Part shown: in pieces, positions 4,628 through 28,426 of the stretch
How the letters are laid out: the number at the start of each line of letters is the position of its first letter
How positions within the stretch are numbered: position 1 is the first letter of the stretch
From: Caldimicrobium thiodismutans
GTDB taxonomy: Bacteria > Desulfobacterota > Thermodesulfobacteria > Thermodesulfobacteriales > Thermodesulfobacteriaceae
Length of the DNA stretch: 32,000 nt
Direction: 5' to 3'
Assembly: GCF_001548275.1 (NCBI RefSeq)
Contig: NZ_AP014945.1
Coordinates: 1,650,001 to 1,682,000, forward strand
Notes under the pieces: generated by a model
Told to the model about the DNA's origin: nothing
What the model saw: the letters and a program-made list of their open reading frames with translations, nothing else
Databases searched by the model: none
Program-made: the position numbers and the translations under genes

Positions 4628-5668
4628 TTACCACTCAAAGCTTTGAACTACGATAATACCTCTCTCTTCTGCCATCTTTAAAGCTATGGGCTTGGCATAG
4701 TGAGTTACTATAAGCTTTACTACTTCTTTATCTCTATAAACCTTTCTAACTGCTATTTCCTTTTTCTCAATCTCTTTTAAGGCTCTATCAAAATCTCTTT
4801 TCCCCTCGTCAAATCTCAACTTAGCCTCTCCAACAAGCACCACTTCTTTTCCATTTACCCTTCCCTTTGCCAGAAAATTGATCTCCTCTCCTTCAATCTC
4901 TGTCCTTATAAATCTTTCTGTAACTTCTATTCCATATTTCTCCTTTAAAACTTTTGGAAGATTCCTGTAAGCTTCATTTTCAAAGGCATAAGAAAAAGTT
5001 CTTGTGAATCCACCAAACTCTTTTCTTAACTGGTGTAAATCCTCCCTTGTTTTTCTGTGCTCTTCCGCAAGCTTTCTTAACTCTTCTTCAGTTTTTTTCT
5101 GGGCTTCCACAAGTTTATTTAATTTTTCTTCAGTTTTTTTCTGAGCTTCCGCGAGTTCATTTACTTTTTCTTCGGTTTTTTTCTGGGCCTGGGCAAGCTC
5201 TTTTACTTCCTGAGCAAGTTCTTTAAGTTCCTGAGCAAGGGCATTTACTTTTTCTTCAGTTTTTTTCTGGGCTTCAGCGAGTTCATTTACTTTTTCTTCG
5301 GTTTTTTTCTGGGCCTGGGCAAGCTCTTTTACTTCTTCAGCGAGTTCATTTACTTTTTCCTCTGTTTTTTTCTGGGCTTCAGCAAGGCTTTTTACTTCCT
5401 GAGCAAGCGCTTTTACTTCCTCAGCAAGGGCATTTACTTTTTCTTCAGTTTTTTTCTGAGCTTCAGTGAGTTTTTTTATTTCCTCTTGGGTCTCTTTTTG
5501 AGCCTTAGTAAGGTCACTAACTATATTTTTTAACTCAAGAAAATCTTCACGCTTTACAGTATCACCAATAGATTTCTCAAGTTTTTCAAGAATTTTTATA
5601 AAAACTTTCCTAACAGGAGGCTCAAGTTCTTCCAGGGCTTTAATTATGTCTACCGCTAAGAGAGCCAT
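4628..5668 (-). CDS. coiled-coil repeat protein with C-terminal PD-(D/E)XK-like (DUF3782-like) domain
   Basis: 346 aa. aa ~55-205 are heptad-based repeats (AQKKTEEKVNELAE / EVKELAQ). The C-terminal ~130 aa (…GEEINFLAKGRVNGKEVVLVGEAKLR…) resemble the restriction-endonuclease-like fold with an E-x-K motif, as seen in thermophile DUF3782-type proteins. Confidence 0.7.
   Translation of the reverse strand: MALLAVDIIKALEELEPPVRKVFIKILEKLEKSIGDTVKREDFLELKNIVSDLTKAQKETQEEIKKLTEAQKKTEEKVNALAEEVKALAQEVKSLAEAQKKTEEKVNELAEEVKELAQAQKKTEEKVNELAEAQKKTEEKVNALAQELKELAQEVKELAQAQKKTEEKVNELAEAQKKTEEKLNKLVEAQKKTEEELRKLAEEHRKTREDLHQLRKEFGGFTRTFSYAFENEAYRNLPKVLKEKYGIEVTERFIRTEIEGEEINFLAKGRVNGKEVVLVGEAKLRFDEGKRDFDRALKEIEKKEIAVRKVYRDKEVVKLIVTHYAKPIALKMAEERGIIVVQSFEW
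5054..5506 (-). repeat. in-frame tandem repeats (42-bp and 21-bp units) encoding the coiled coil
   Basis: Near-identical DNA units recur about 8 times on the + strand, e.g. ttcttcagtttttttctgggcttc / gagttcatttactttttc. Confidence 0.85.
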
Positions 5669-9015: not shown

Positions 9016-10406
9016 GGTAGTATTATAAATTTTGTGTATAGATTGGGGAGGATTAAAGTTAAGTCAGTAACCTGGGTTGAATTTAAAAAAATTTGGTAAA
9101 ATGCCCTCCTAGCCTCTACCTAAAAACTAACCAGGAGGGCGAAAATGAAGGATCCGCTCTATGAGAACCTCAAAATTATTATACAACATCCTGAGAAAAA
9201 GAAAATACTTGAAAACCTCTTATTTAAGGAAATTAAAAATATGACTAAAAACCTTCTTGAAACCTTGATTTTGGAAGAAAGAAGAATTTTTTGTGAAGAA
9301 ATGGATGATGTGGGGAATGGATATTTCTTAAGGAGTTTAAAAACACCTTTTGGAGAGATAAAAAATCTTAGGGTGGCAAGAACAAGGAAGAAAAATTTTA
9401 AAACCGCTATTTTTGAGCCTTATTCAAGGGAATTCTTATATTTAGATGAGCTGATTTATTACATGTATGCTGGTGGGTGTTCTACGAGAGATGTTGCTAA
9501 CACCTTAGAAAAAATTTACGGGGTTAAATATTCTCCCACTTCTATATCTCGTATTACATCAGTTGTGACTAAAAAGATAGAGGAATTTAAAAATGCCCCT
9601 ATAACAAAGTGGTATCCTGTGTTATATGTTGATGGGACTTATTTAAAAGTCAGGCGTGGAGGTGTGACAGAGAATGAAGTAGTTTATTTTGTTGCTGGAT
9701 TAAGTGAGGATGGACATAAGGAGATTTTAGGATATTGGATACCTGGAGGAAGTGGAGAGAGTGCACTTAATTGGAAAGAGATATTTAAAGAACTTTATAA
9801 AAGAGGACTAAAGGAACCTCTTTTAGTGGTAGGAGATAACCTTCCTGGGCTTGAAGAAGCTGTAAAACTTATCTATCCTCTTGCAGATTTTCAGAGCTGT
9901 GTGTTGCATAAGGTTCGGAATACTTTGAATAGAGTAAGGAAACGAGAAAGACCCTGCAGTTGCAGAAGATTTGAAGGAGATATATGAAAGGCACGATGAG
10001 AGAGAGTGGAAGCTTGGATTTGAGAGATTTAAGAGGAAATGGGAAAGAATTTATCCTGATATAATAAGGTCATGGGAGAGGGATTTGGACAAACTTATGG
10101 TTTATTTGAAGTATCCTTATCCTTTGAGGAGATTTATATATACCACGAATGCCCTTGAGAGATTTATTAAGGAAGTGAAGAGGAGAGTAAAGGTTATAGA
10201 AGTATTTCCGAGTGAGGGTTCAGTTGATAAGATTGTTTATTTAGTAGTTGAGGAGATGAATGAGAAGTATAGGAGTAGGAGACTAAAAAATTTTGAGAGG
10301 ATAATAGAGGAGCTAAGGGGGGAAAGGAGGGCAAGATATGGGAGTGGAGAGATTAAAATTATTACAAATGAAAAAGAATTTTATACACAAAAAAGTTGAC
10401 ACTATG
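9016..10406 (+). mobile_element. IS256-family insertion sequence (~1.39 kb)
   Basis: Encodes a Mutator/IS256-type transposase. Imperfect terminal inverted repeats: GGTAGTATTATAAATTTTGTGTATAGA (left) against the reverse complement of the right end, CATAGTGTCAACTTTTTTGTGTATAAA (about 17/25). The flanks ATATAAAA and GAATAAAA share ATAAAA, a possible decayed 8-bp target duplication. Confidence 0.6.
9145..10399 (+). pseudogene. IS256-family transposase split by a +1 frameshift near 9940-9960
   Basis: ORF 9145-9987 carries YVDGTYLKVRRGG, GLSEDGHKEILGYW and FQSCVLHKVRN. ORF 9971-10399 (+1 frame, open from 9938) carries IYTTNALERFIKEVKRR. The expected continuous sequence ...RKRE|KDPAVAEDLKEIY... requires a 1-nt correction. 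Confidence 0.8.
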
Positions 10407-16752: not shown

Positions 16753-17799
16753 TTAGCTTTCAAAGAGTTTAAAGATATCTTCAGAGCTCTTCGCAAGAAT
16801 TATTTTCCTCAGCCACTCCTTAAGAACTCCTCTATCCTCCTCTCTTACCACCCTCTCTCTCACTTCCTCCGGCACATACCCGAGCTTCACCTCTATGGCC
16901 TCAAGCACAAGCTCCCTTGCATTCTGTATTAATCCCTGATATATCCCCTGTTCAATTCCCTGCTCAATCCCTTGCTTAATTCCCTGCTCAATTCCCTGCT
17001 TATAAAACTTCTCTCCCACTTTATCCCAAAAGCTCTTTAACTCCATCTTTACCCCCTCTTCTTCACAACTATCTAATATATTAAACCAGATTACCTCCCC
17101 GTCAACCCTGAACTTTATTTCAGATATCCTAATCAAAAATCCCATCTCCCATCTTCCTTTCTCCCCTATTGCTACTAATCTCTCTGTCGCCCTTGTAATA
17201 ACTTCAATTATCTCTTCAAAATCCAGTGATTCCGCCTTCATTAAATAAAGATAACACCCAAGCCCTGCTAAGATATCAAATATCCTCAATATCTTATCAT
17301 CCTCTACCCTCTTTAAATCAACCACATGAACCTTAAAAAGTTCTCCCTTTAACCCCTCTGGCACTGAAAATATCTCCTCTATCCTTTCAGGATAGCCCCA
17401 GGGCTTATCCCCTTCATAAAACACAAGAGGTAAAACAGGCACATACCCCTTCCCCTCCTTGAGAGACCTCTCATTTAATGCGGTTATGTAATTTAAAATC
17501 TGAAGGTAAATCCTTTTATCAGGTGCACTTTTGTGCTCAATGAGGATATAGAGATGGGCTTTGGTTGAAGGTTTACCTTCACTAAGGAGATTAACCTCTG
17601 CAACAAGATCTGGGATTTCTCGCTTTTTTCTTGAAAGGGAAACCTGTTCTTCAGGGATGATTTTAAGGGAGTCAAGGTCAAGATGAGTTTTAATGTGATC
17701 AGGGAGGAAGGTTGAGAGGAAGGCTTTTAAGTTTTCAGGGTCTTTGAGGAAGGCCTTGGCAAAAAGGTCATAGGGAACAGGAGGTTTCTTTCCTGACAT
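16753..17799 (-). CDS. Rpn-family recombination-promoting nuclease / putative transposase (PDDEXK_Transposase_31, YhgA-like)
   Basis: 348 aa. N-terminal PYDLFAKAFLKDPENLKAFLSTFLP...DLVAEV...YILIEHKS pattern, and a C-terminal QGIEQGIKQGIEQGIEQGIYQG repeat typical of this family. Confidence 0.8.
   Translation of the reverse strand: MSGKKPPVPYDLFAKAFLKDPENLKAFLSTFLPDHIKTHLDLDSLKIIPEEQVSLSRKKREIPDLVAEVNLLSEGKPSTKAHLYILIEHKSAPDKRIYLQILNYITALNERSLKEGKGYVPVLPLVFYEGDKPWGYPERIEEIFSVPEGLKGELFKVHVVDLKRVEDDKILRIFDILAGLGCYLYLMKAESLDFEEIIEVITRATERLVAIGEKGRWEMGFLIRISEIKFRVDGEVIWFNILDSCEEEGVKMELKSFWDKVGEKFYKQGIEQGIKQGIEQGIEQGIYQGLIQNARELVLEAIEVKLGYVPEEVRERVVREEDRGVLKEWLRKIILAKSSEDIFKLFES
16930..17001 (-). 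repeat. about six 12-bp in-frame tandem repeats (QGIE units) inside the Rpn-like gene
   Basis: The + strand reads aattccctgctc / aatcccttgctt / aattccctgctc / aattccctgctt, preceded by two diverged units. Confidence 0.8.
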
Positions 17800-24790: not shown

Positions 24791-26872
24791 ATGACACCTG
24801 AGGAACTTAAAATTTTGAAGACCACCAGAAACATTGGAATTGTTGCGCACATTGACGCAGGGAAAACTACAACTACAGAGAGAGTCCTTTACTATACAGG
24901 TAAGACCTATAAGATCGGTGAGGTGCACGAAGGCACAGCGGTTATGGATTTTATGATTCAAGAACAGGAGAGGGGCATTACTATTACCTCTGCCTGCACA
25001 ACCACCTTTTGGCGAAATCACAGAATTAACATCATTGATACCCCAGGACATGTGGATTTTACTATTGAAGTAGAGAGAAGTTTAAGGGTTCTTGATGGGG
25101 CTGTGGTGATCTTCTGTGCGGTAGGAGGAGTTGAGCCTCAGTCAGAGACAGTCTGGAGACAGGCGGATAAATACAGGGTTCCTCGTATTACCTTTGTCAA
25201 TAAAATGGATAGATTGGGGGCTAATTTTTACAGAGTTCTTGAGGAGATGAAAGCTCGCCTTGGGGCTAATCCCCTTCCTTTACAGATTCCATACGGGGCT
25301 GAAGAATCCTTTGTTGGAGTAATAGATCTCATAGAGATGAAGGCTATTGTCTGGGAAGAAGAGACTTTGGGAGCTAAATTCCATGACGAAGAAATTCCAG
25401 CCCATCTAAGGGATCAGGCTGAAGAATACAGAATCATGATGCTTGAGAAGCTTGCAGATGTTAATGATGAGATAATGGAAAAATATCTTGAGGGACAGGA
25501 AATCTCCCCAGGTGAGATAAGGAAGGCTATTAGAGAGGCTACCTGTCAGCTAAAGCTTGTCCCAGTGCTTTGTGGATCGGCCTTCAAGAATAAAGGAGTG
25601 CAGCCTCTACTTGATGCTATTGTGGATTATCTTCCTTCACCTCTTGATATCCCTCCAGTTAAGGGTATTAATCCTAATACCGGTGAAGTTGAGGAAAGAC
25701 ATACTGATCCATCAGCCCCTCTTTCTGCCCTTGCCTTTAAGATTATGACAGACCCCTTTGTGGGGACCTTAACCTTTTTAAGGATTTATTCAGGTCGGAT
25801 TGAGACTGGAATGAATGTTTATAACTCTACCAAACGAAAAAAAGAAAGGATCGGAAGACTTGTGAGAATGCATGCCAATCAAAGAGAAGAGATAACAGGG
25901 GCAGCAGCTGGAGACATTGTTGCGGCTCTTGGTCTAAGGGTTACTACAACTGGAGATACCCTCTGTGATGAGGCTAACCCTATAGAGCTTGAAAAGCTTG
26001 AGATTCCTGAGCCAGTTATCTCAGTTGCAGTTGAACCAAAAACCAAGGCTGATCAGGAAAAGTTATCTCTTGCTTTGCAAAAGATCTCCCTTGAAGACCC
26101 CTCTTTTAGGGTTTCAATCAATCATGAGACAGGGCAAACCTTGATTTGGGGAATGGGAGAGCTTCATTTGGAAATTATTGTGGATAGATTGATTAGAGAG
26201 TTTAAAGTGGGTGTAAATGTGGGAAGGCCAGAGGTAGCTTATAAAGAGACTATTACAGCCTCTGCTGAGGCTGAAGGTAAATATATTAGACAAACGGGTG
26301 GACGTGGACAATATGGACATGTTAAGTTAATTGTTGAGCCAAATCCTGGAAAGGGAGTTGAGTTTGTCTCTGAAATCGTGGGTGGAGTTATCCCAAAGGA
26401 GTTTATCCCCTCTGTTGAAAAGGGTGTAAGGGAGGCGGCTCAGGAAGGGGTTCTGGCTGGTTATCCAGTAATTGATGCTAAGATTCGCTTGATTGATGGA
26501 TCATATCATGAAGTGGATTCTTCAGATCTTGCCTTTGCTATTGCAGGTTCTATGGGATTTAAGGAGGCTTGCAAAAGAGCAAATCCTGTGTTATTGGAAC
26601 CTATTATGAAGGTTGAGGTTGTCCTGCCCGAGGAATATCTTGGTGAGGTTCTGGGGGACCTTTCTTCAAGAAGAGGAAGGGTTGAAGGAATGGATATGAG
26701 GGGTAATGTTAGAGTAATTAGGGCCTTTGTTCCCTTAGGGGAGATGTTTGGCTATGCTACTACCCTGAGGTCTTTAACTCAGGGAAGAGGCACTTTTACC
26801 ATGCAATTTGATCACTATGAAAAAGTGCCAGCCCATCTGGCAGAAGCCATAATAAAGAAAGCTAAAGGATAA
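24791..26872 (+). CDS. fusA: elongation factor G
   Basis: 693 aa. [32 protein letters not shown] and NKMDR G-motifs, with full-length EF-G similarity. Confidence 0.98.
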
Positions 26873-26893
26873 AAACATTTAGGAGGAAAAGCT

Positions 26894-28093
26894 ATGGCCA
26901 AGCAGAAATTTGAGCGTAAGAAGCCCCACTTAAATGTAGGAACAATAGGACACATTGACCACGGTAAAACCACATTAACGAGTGCAATAACCAGGGTTTT
27001 ATCTACGAAGGGGTATGCCCAGTGGATACCCTTTGATAGCATTGATAAGGCCCCTGAGGAGAAGGCGCGTGGAATAACCATTCAGCTTGCCCATGTGGAG
27101 TATGAGAGTGATAAGAGGCACTATGCGCATATAGATTGTCCGGGGCATGCGGACTATATAAAGAACATGATAACAGGAGCAGCGCAGATGGATGGAGCGA
27201 TACTTGTGGTTGCGGCAACGGATGGGCCTATGCCGCAGACGAGGGAGCATGTATTACTTGCTCGTCAGGTGAATGTTCCAGCGATGGTGGTGTTTATGAA
27301 CAAGATAGACATGGTGGATGATGCGGAGTTACTTGATTTAGTTGAGCTTGAGGTGAGGGAGTTATTGAGCAAGTATGGATTTCCTGGGGATGAGGTGCCA
27401 GTGATAAGGGGTAGTGCCTTGAAGGCGCTTGAGTGTGGGTGTGGAAAGGAGGAGTGTCAGTGGTGTGGGGCGATATGGCAGTTGGTGAAGGCGATGGATG
27501 ATTATATACCTGAGCCAGTTAGGGATATAGATAAGCCATTTCTTATGCCGGTTGAGGATGTGTTTAGTATAAGTGGTAGGGGTACGGTAGTGACAGGAAA
27601 GGTGGAGAGGGGGGTATTGAAGCCTGGAGAGGAGGTGGAGATAGTAGGGTTAAGGCCAACGATAAAGACGGTGGCAACGAGTCTTGAGATGTTCAGGAAG
27701 ATACTGGATGAGGCGTTACCTGGAGACAATGTGGGGGTGTTGTTGAGGGGAGTTGGGAAGGATGATGTGGAGAGGGGTCAGGTATTAGCGAAACCTGGGA
27801 CGATAAAGCCGCATACGAAGTTTAAGGCAGAGGTATATGTATTGAAGAAGGAGGAGGGGGGTAGGCATACACCTTTTTTTAATGGATACAGGCCACAGTT
27901 TTATTTTAGGACAACGGATGTTACAGGGGTAGTGAGTTTACCGGAGGGAGTGGAGATGGTGATGCCTGGAGATAATGTGGAGTTTGAGGTGGAGTTAATA
28001 AAGCCGGTAGCGTTGGAGGAGGGATTGAGGTTTGCGGTGAGAGAGGGAGGAAGGACGGTTGGAGCTGGAGTTGTAACCAAGATTATAGAATAA
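26894..28093 (+). CDS. tuf: elongation factor Tu (with a 4-Cys insertion in domain I and atypical codon usage)
   Basis: 399 aa. [19 protein letters not shown] and NKIDMV motifs. Canonical position after fusA. Confidence 0.98.
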
Positions 28094-28114: not shown

Positions 28115-28426
28115 ATGATATACTCACAAAGAATTAGGATTAAACTTAAAAGCTATGACCACCGGGTGCTTGATAAATCTGTTGTAGATATAGTGCAGAC
28201 AGCTAAGGAGACAGGAGCAAAAATTGTAGGCCCTATTCCTTTGCCAACTAAAATTAGCCGGTGGACGGTTTTGAGGTCTCCCCATATTGACAAGAATTCA
28301 AGAGAACAATTTGAGGTAAGGGTCCATAAAAGGCTGATTGAAATTTTAGAACCCTCTCAGCAGACCATTGATGCCCTAATGCAGTTGGAATTACCTGCTG
28401 GGGTAGAGGTTGAAATAAAGACTTAG
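28115..28426 (+). CDS. rpsJ: 30S ribosomal protein S10
   Basis: 103 aa. [14 protein letters not shown]...PLPTK...[14 protein letters not shown]. Confidence 0.97.

Follow-up and report, generated by a model that had tools for sequence, protein, structure and literature searches.

The tuf gene in the str operon of Caldimicrobium thiodismutans, which encodes EF-Tu (399 aa) and is located between fusA and rpsJ at positions 26894–28093 (+ strand) of the analyzed stretch of 32,000 nucleotides (called here the window), is written in a codon dialect that is a real, inherited, and actively maintained feature, and not foreign DNA. In sequence comparisons, the two tuf copies of this bacterium are shown to overwrite each other by gene conversion, and the silent sites of tuf copies homogenized in this way are pushed toward G, and here somewhat toward A, on the coding strand. 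The dialect most likely belongs to the concerted evolution of tufA/tufB pairs and works like biased conversion, but in a strand-polar form. The whole account proposed here, namely strand-polar biased gene conversion between twin tuf genes, probably filtered by mismatch repair, is one to which we lean with moderate confidence.

Codon usage of tuf and the limits of the dialect

Direct counts in tuf gave ATA for 20 of 24 Ile codons and no ATC, AGG for 17 of 21 Arg codons, AAG for 26 of 29 Lys codons, GAG for 34 of 35 Glu codons, and CAG for all ten Gln codons. Ala, Thr, and Val are frequently encoded by GCG (15/27), ACG (12/23), and GTG (24/45), Ser is AGY in nine of ten cases, and Leu is TTR in 21 of 30. 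The figures given for Ile and Arg in the initial annotation of this DNA proved exact, and the preference for GCG, ACG, and GTG described there is borne out by genome-wide fractions of only 0.04, 0.05, and 0.19, respectively; for Lys, the preference is confirmed and the count of 27/30 is corrected. Genome-wide fractions of ATA, AGG, AAG, and GAG are 0.27, 0.29, 0.36, and 0.41. In comparison with ten neighboring genes, Fisher tests returned p = 4e-4 to 6e-9 per codon tested, and the codon usage of tuf against the genome (closed, 1.81 Mb, 38% GC) gave a G-test value of 409 with 41 df. When codon distances were computed for 1346 genes, as had been suggested, the two tuf copies occupied ranks 1 and 2. 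Where G is available, its share is 0.59 in tuf vs 0.215 ± 0.054. Four-fold sites of tuf contain A.28, C.07, G.42, and T.23, compared with A.24, C.23, G.11, and T.43 genome-wide, and the order at silent sites on the coding strand is G > A >= T > C. First codon positions (TTR, AGR) and the choice of AGY for Ser are affected as well, and the bias thus is not a wobble effect.

Independent sequencing runs reproduce the letters of tuf, with about twice the flanking depth in two of them (X1 and X3), so the sequence is not an assembly artefact; RNA contigs also cover the gene. Relief of CpG depletion was considered as a cause and rejected, because C before G is lower in tuf. In the pooled tuf genes of the class, NAY codons retain C before A (0.44–0.88) and tend to lose C before G (0.06–0.34).

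A search for a second tuf copy, proposed in the initial annotation, found a near-identical gene at 124241–125440 of the host genome (G000), in a locus of the order tRNA-Tyr-Gly-Thr-tuf-rpmG followed by secE. The two copies differ by one synonymous substitution and in their stop codons, and this single silent difference compares with 99 to a sister species. The block common to both copies spans 26867–28092 (+) and comprises the ORF together with 27 nt upstream, including the ribosome-binding site; independent contigs end loosely at 26867 and 28092, matching its limits. Within tuf, the dialect is present from the first codons and keeps its full strength through codons 1–380 (26894–28033, +), where the share of G at sites that allow it is 0.63–0.84 against a background of 0.34 in 22 pooled genomes, and it fades over codons 381–399 (28034–28090, +) to the background value of 0.34 and then to 0.20. 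Fading over the last 20–30 codons was seen in three clades, the class and two others. The statement that the switch coincides with the ORF borders is therefore accurate at the 5' border and not at the 3' border, where about 19 codons are at background.

Neighboring genes served as controls. Up to its last 40 codons, fusA (24791–26872, +) has ordinary local usage (ATA 8/56, GAG 38/71); its first 90 codons indeed contain no ATA, while they hold 11 Ile codons (nine ATT and two ATC) and not the 12 reported earlier. Directly 3' of the shared block, rpsJ (28115–28426, +) is also ordinary, and of the genes said to lack the dialect, rplC departs in part from this description (AAG 19/26, AGG 7/10). The codon bias had additionally been held responsible for several long stop-free antisense ORFs at 26999–27729. 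Stop triplets are indeed scarce on that strand (26.7/kb vs 55 ± 8), and yet the ORFs are not noteworthy, an antisense ORF as long being present in 39% of genes of at least 1.2 kb. They are unsupported as genes and, with their ordinary lengths, are a by-product of codon bias.

It had been noted at the outset that a similar pattern in other highly expressed genes would speak against a peculiarity of tuf. Such a pattern was not found: groEL, dnaK, dsrAB, atpAD, tsf, and gap have ordinary codon usage, ribosomal-protein genes show no optimal-codon signal (S = -0.6), and elongator tRNAs are encoded by one gene per anticodon. Major-codon selection was rejected on the grounds that the pattern is absent from the ribosomal-protein and other highly expressed genes.

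Another possible source of such asymmetry is ordinary replication-strand skew or, alternatively, strand-symmetric GC-biased gene conversion (gBGC). Both host copies lie on the leading-like strand, the GC content of tuf is raised (0.48 vs 0.43), and a symmetric component may be present, as in the genome G182 described below. However, genes on the same strand next to the two copies are normal, the replication-linked difference in skew is at most 0.3, and four-fold C falls to 0.01–0.10 in the full-length tuf genes of the class, the opposite of what symmetric gBGC should produce. This loss of C refutes both processes as a full explanation, and we judge them very improbable. As for orientation elsewhere, the tuf copies of genome G095 are oppositely oriented, with skew too weak to place the origin, and the pair in G179 is co-oriented yet unshifted. 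In the host, the + strand is leading-like over 0–660 kb and 1020–1815 kb, and dnaA (64–1524) is not located at a skew flip, which suggests uneven replichores, an inversion, or an origin elsewhere.

Inheritance of the dialect and the question of a donor

The dialect was found in 22/22 Thermodesulfobacteria tested, that is, members of three families with background data, and each of the seven closed genomes of the class carries two tuf copies. The class shifts in log-odds are +2.7 for G over C, +3.4 for G over A, and +1.5 for ATA over ATT, each in 22/22 genomes, and the dialect follows the GC level of each host. Sharing of the anomaly by relatives had been named in the initial annotation as an argument against transfer, and it is what we observe.

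Four-fold sites of tuf are saturated between genera. The equilibrium fitted with the non-reversible UNREST model, on 138 sites and with noisy rates, is A.24, C.04, G.43, and T.28 for tuf (3.7 substitutions per site), in comparison with A.30, C.14, G.15, and T.41 for neighboring genes (tree length 6.0). An ameliorating horizontally acquired gene should decay toward its host; here, the equilibrium G of 0.43 and C of 0.04 equal the observed state. Since the observed state of saturated sites is the fitted equilibrium, the dialect is being maintained and is not decaying. Silent change per codon is 0.25 in tuf vs about 0.39 in its neighbors, and such slower silent evolution favors a fixation bias over hypermutation. 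Parsimony between the host and a close species counted 21 G>A and four A>G changes, which may reflect parsimony bias or a relaxing drive; polarization of this kind is unreliable because the outgroups are saturated.

These results bear on the proposal that tuf was replaced by a xenolog from an Aquificota-like donor, whose codon usage would still be visible or refreshed. Some observations are in line with it. EF-Tu is 77–82% identical to Aquificota proteins, as close as to the sister family within Desulfobacterota (81–83%), a quick tree placed one Aquificota row within the class, at the end of a long branch, and ATA, AGG, AAG, and GAG are typical of Aquificota. The tuf gene of the one Aquificota member compared in this respect, Hydrogenivirga, shares these four codons with the host tuf, and in Hydrogenivirga they are a genome-wide habit that includes the reverse gyrase gene. 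The match ends there, as the Hydrogenivirga tuf uses CTT/CTC, CCC/CCT, and ACA/ACC, and not TTR, CCG, ACG, and AGT; its Leu, Pro, Thr, Ala, and Ser codons all differ. In the EF-Tu tree, the deep branching of the class is recovered and the class is joined to the Desulfobacterota sister family; with the class held together with this family to the exclusion of the single Aquificota row, the tree scored 5.75 lnL above the unconstrained one (AU 0.58). The named proteins among the 120 best EF-Tu matches of 5.8 billion are all from Thermodesulfobacteria, the closest being Thermodesulfobacterium and Caldimicrobium species, which places the host in the Thermodesulfobacteriaceae. Additionally, EF-Tu carries a CxCx4CxxC loop (27434–27466, +), a lineage marker shared by the class, the sister family, and several other Desulfobacterota, and absent from the one Aquificota EF-Tu read. 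The loop occurs in all class members inspected and is a possible metal site.

With one Aquificota row, the phylogenetic check leans toward vertical descent with respect to Aquificota. Within one family of the class (f1), EF-Tu and the species tree disagree, the latter being rejected by the alignment (AU p = 0.003, 2000 replicates), so that tuf exchange between genera is possible there. The C. thiodismutans EF-Tu groups with Thermodesulfobacterium and not with its own genus, again a possible inter-genus exchange. Even an ancient transfer of the EF-Tu protein would leave the present silent sites unexplained, and the same shift occurs in unrelated phyla. With 22/22 relatives sharing the dialect, saturated sites at equilibrium, and the vertical tree scoring better, replacement by a dialect-bearing donor is not supported and can be given very little probability. 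The other origin suggested earlier, gene conversion from a donor, was half right: conversion does take place, and its partners are the two resident copies.

Homogenized copies, mismatch repair, and the origin of the bias

Two tuf copies within a genome differ by 1–9 nt while orthologous four-fold sites are saturated. In Desulfobacterota outside the class, 12/25 duplicates are shifted and 0/7 single copies are (p = 0.0015), all seven singles having been verified by synteny, with the second site intact and empty. In the class that includes a bin titled Acidimicrobiia, referred to by this name throughout, the shift is present in 17/17 near-identical duplicates and in none of four diverged (70–87%) ones (p = 2e-4). 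Three of 15 Acidimicrobiia genomes with one match are also shifted; all three are fragmented bins that are assumed to hide a collapsed second copy. With these three and a further, mixed bin excluded, eight independent pairs on the tree gave 7.4 in the same direction and 0 in the opposite one (p about 0.016), and in a cross-phylum set 17/27 vs 6/18 were shifted. The comparison of duplicates with single or diverged copies thus ties the bias to converting sequence, a link of the kind known from gBGC, and we consider it likely that the silent-site bias depends on conversion. A G-over-C shift is absent from 13/25 Desulfobacterota duplicates, among them several pairs with 99.8% identity, so conversion looks necessary for the dialect but does not suffice on its own. 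A translational-selection proxy does not predict which duplicates shift (rho 0.17).

A second group of sequences shows a related bias. After tuf, the most tuf-like genes in the host genome are copies of the Rpn/YhgA family (PF04754), represented by a gene in the window (16753–17799, −) and about ten sister copies, which are approximately 87–96% identical. The 3' part of the window gene (16753–17410, −) is tuf-like (four-fold G 0.36, A 0.33, T 0.23, C 0.08; two-fold C 0.06), and its 5' third (17470–17799, −) has the mirror bias (four-fold C 0.34, T 0.45, G 0.00; two-fold C 0.52). Rpn and IS110 copies make up the top 10 of 777 genes for such a flip from 5' C/T to 3' G/A, while single-copy genes are flat. 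The flip recurs in the separately homogenized Rpn families of G004, G009, and G037, whose proteins are 34–60% identical to those of the host. It may correspond to a two-ended break with invading 3' tails as the corrected strands. A weaker flip was noted in apparent singletons (G008, G011, and one copy in G002).

The same comparisons weigh on selection acting on the tuf mRNA itself, in the form of purine loading, low structure, or a private set of C34-anticodon tRNAs. Such selection would account for the lower silent divergence of tuf, the absence of inverted repeats of at least 12 nt from the gene, the retention of C in NAY codons before A (possibly a site-specific constraint), and the reversion near the start of the next gene. 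On the other hand, single-copy tuf genes, from which at least as much output per gene is needed, and diverged duplicates lack the dialect, and Rpn copies, presumably weakly expressed, show both the bias and its mirror image. Acidimicrobiia move to G/T and not to purines, and the ordinary usage of groEL and the other highly expressed genes, the S value of ribosomal-protein genes, and the single tRNA genes described above point in the same direction. We therefore regard mRNA selection as distinctly unlikely.

According to the mechanism that we propose, the conversion heteroduplex would tend to form with one polarity, so that correction falls on the antisense strand, and mismatch repair would treat the two reciprocal mismatches unequally. 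Well-repaired mismatches would restore the template and poorly repaired ones would admit the incoming base, the corrected strand thereby gaining bases that form poorly repaired mismatches. G:G mismatches are well repaired by MutS, and C:C mismatches escape it. Under MutS, one allele would thus be kept and the other gained, and over time pyrimidines would accumulate on the corrected strand and purines on the template strand; for A/A versus T/T, a modest excess of A over T would be expected. By the same logic, NucS would drive the template strand to G=T >> A=C. The ends of the shared block would rarely be converted and would for this reason keep local usage, although the presence of the following gene's start region could be another reason for the fading at the 3' end. 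The drive would be visible in this host because translational selection is weak in its genome. A uniform polarity along tuf would require a directional source, such as transcription or lagging-strand gap repair. In the Salmonella conversion model, breaks are spread evenly and tracts extend in both directions (PMC5485169), an arrangement that would predict a mid-gene flip like that of Rpn and not the uniform bias of tuf.

The two repair systems are distributed in a way that allows their signatures to be compared. NucS was detected in 27/30 Acidimicrobiia and 0/32 Desulfobacterota, MutS in 0/30 and 31/32, respectively; NucS was called with NF002876, Pfam PF01939 having missed it in five bins. 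C. thiodismutans has MutS and MutL and lacks NucS. The prediction for NucS, whose specificity covers G-G, G-T, and T-T mismatches (PMC11551767), was formed after one G/T genome and then tested on 36 genomes. The tuf genes of Acidimicrobiia follow G≈T≫A≈C, with shifts of 0.0 for G vs T, -0.1 for A vs C, -3.1 for A vs T, and +2.4 to +2.6 for T vs C, and thus fit the pairwise prediction that G equals T, A equals C, and the former two greatly exceed the latter. In MutS genomes, G is first and C last. The A-versus-T shift ranges from -4.5 to -1.6 with NucS and from -1.1 to +1.9 with MutS, with no overlap.

The fit of the MutS ranking to the dialect is partial. G over C and, in Ile, A over T occur as predicted, the latter being clear only in Ile, while the large excess of G over A was not predicted; the change from A to G at two-fold sites is the strongest effect in the host (94%). 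MutS efficiencies for A/C and G/T mismatches, as quoted for Salmonella and Escherichia coli, are both high (PMC5485169), and G over A therefore needs an extra symmetric GC bias, which is a free parameter. As the repair contrast sets one NucS clade against several MutS clades, other differences between clades could explain the contrast in signatures. G182, a closed 2.0 Mb Desulfobacterota genome without MutS1, MutL, and NucS, shows no G-over-C shift, and neither does its MutS-positive sister G126; the twin tuf genes of G182 have G over A +1.5 and C over T +1.3, a symmetric GC rise, with more ATA. We see nearly an even chance that mismatch-repair specificity is the filter of the bias, and we are slightly more reserved about a bacteria-wide strand-polar drive in ectopically homogenized sequence, toward G (and A) under MutS and toward G/T under NucS. 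One bin (L093/G090) is titled Actinomycetota, carries MutS and no NucS, and is possibly mislabelled; it has A-rich twin tuf genes (0.55 vs 0.17) and an EF-Tu that clusters with a Desulfobacterota row.

Strand-asymmetric mutation linked to conversion, arising in ssDNA intermediates or by error-prone synthesis in tracts, would dispense with any choice by mismatch repair. The dependence on homogenized copies, the loss of the dialect at the 3' end, and the flip in Rpn genes would follow from it just as readily. Moreover, Acidimicrobiia show the G/T pattern that is classic for single-strand deamination (PMC10030826), and a changed spectrum has been reported in converting paralogs of Mycobacterium tuberculosis (PMC13061034). 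Nevertheless, silent divergence of tuf is below that of its neighbors and not above it, deamination predicts T up and A down whereas ATA replaces ATT in 22/22 genomes, and nothing in a mutational origin would make the signature depend on whether MutS or NucS is present. We consider this explanation unlikely, and prefer strand-polar biased conversion.

Known systems, consequences, and other repeats

Concerted evolution of tufA and tufB by gene conversion has been described (Paulsson et al. 2017, PMC5485169; Wang & Chen 2018, PMC6053082), and RecA-dependent non-reciprocal transfer was demonstrated experimentally in Salmonella, where conversion at nt 1126 reaches about 1% of the mid-gene level (PMC5485169). 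Judged by the consulted parts of these papers, the C. thiodismutans pair resembles tufA/tufB pairs in its two near-identical copies at the conserved str and tRNA-secE loci, in the probable drop of conversion near the gene end, and in the proposed unequal treatment of mismatches by mismatch repair. In contrast, those parts report no directional effect on base composition, and the bias in C. thiodismutans is polar, while the Salmonella model is direction-symmetric.

Bacterial gBGC is strand-symmetric, with both G and C rising, and was demonstrated for allelic recombination in a paper that makes no reference to tuf, to paralogs, or to strands (Lassalle et al. 2015, PMC4450053). The dialect is similar to it as a recombination-linked fixation bias at silent sites that is able to override codon selection (PMC4450053). 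It differs in acting between paralogs and in its asymmetry, since coding-strand G goes up at four-fold sites and C nearly disappears. Hex/MutS marker effects in pneumococcal transformation (PMC3375284) are comparable in that unequal heteroduplex repair decides which allele is transferred, and the mismatch set of NucS/EndoMS (PMC11551767) matches the G/T dialect. Unlike the present case, both concern the efficiency of markers in the laboratory, with no demonstrated influence on how the composition of duplicated genes develops over long times. A purine- or G-rich coding or leading strand also results from purine loading and from replication GC skew (PMC10030826), but these act genome-wide, whereas the dialect is confined to homogenized repeats, is several-fold stronger, and flips inside Rpn genes. 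In the literature searched, which covered few subscription journals, no description was found of the G-rich tuf dialect or of a strand-biased (polar) form of conversion.

Optimal codons are commonly judged with tuf as a standard reference, and the gene also serves as a phylogenetic marker and as a textbook example of concerted evolution. If a strand-biased conversion process sets its silent sites, EF-Tu silent sites would be rewritten regardless of host codon preferences, and codon-adaptation indices, transfer detectors, and growth-rate predictors would misread tuf in many lineages. Biased gene conversion, known so far as symmetric and GC-directed, would also include a polar variety that depends on the repair enzyme, and the molecular bias behind bacterial gBGC, together with the strand corrected in ectopic conversion, would become directly testable. 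In such a case, silent sites in twin genes could reveal which repair system an uncultured lineage has and how its recombination intermediates are polarized.

Several other repeats were noted in the host genome. An IS110-family transposase gene (G000:93087–94313) and three more copies, 99–100% identical, have extreme C/T-ending codons (G 0.02), moving to A at the 3' end. In the successive quarters of a non-coding repeat (G000:46191–46510) with about 25 copies, the GC skew is -0.45, -0.70, +0.31, and +0.44, matching the Rpn flip in polarity, and three other non-coding repeats show no flip. The AAA-ATPase and PD-(D/E)XK nuclease family (PF09820, PF08011), represented by L028:980–2527 and about 12 more host copies, is mostly 85–94% identical, and its 3' third is mildly G-shifted. 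In the window, an IS256/Mutator transposase gene at 9145–10399 is split over two frames and has a second near-identical copy in the genome, and a coiled-coil repeat protein with a purine-rich coding strand is encoded at 4628–5668 (−), with paralogs at G000:1471565 and 1781688.
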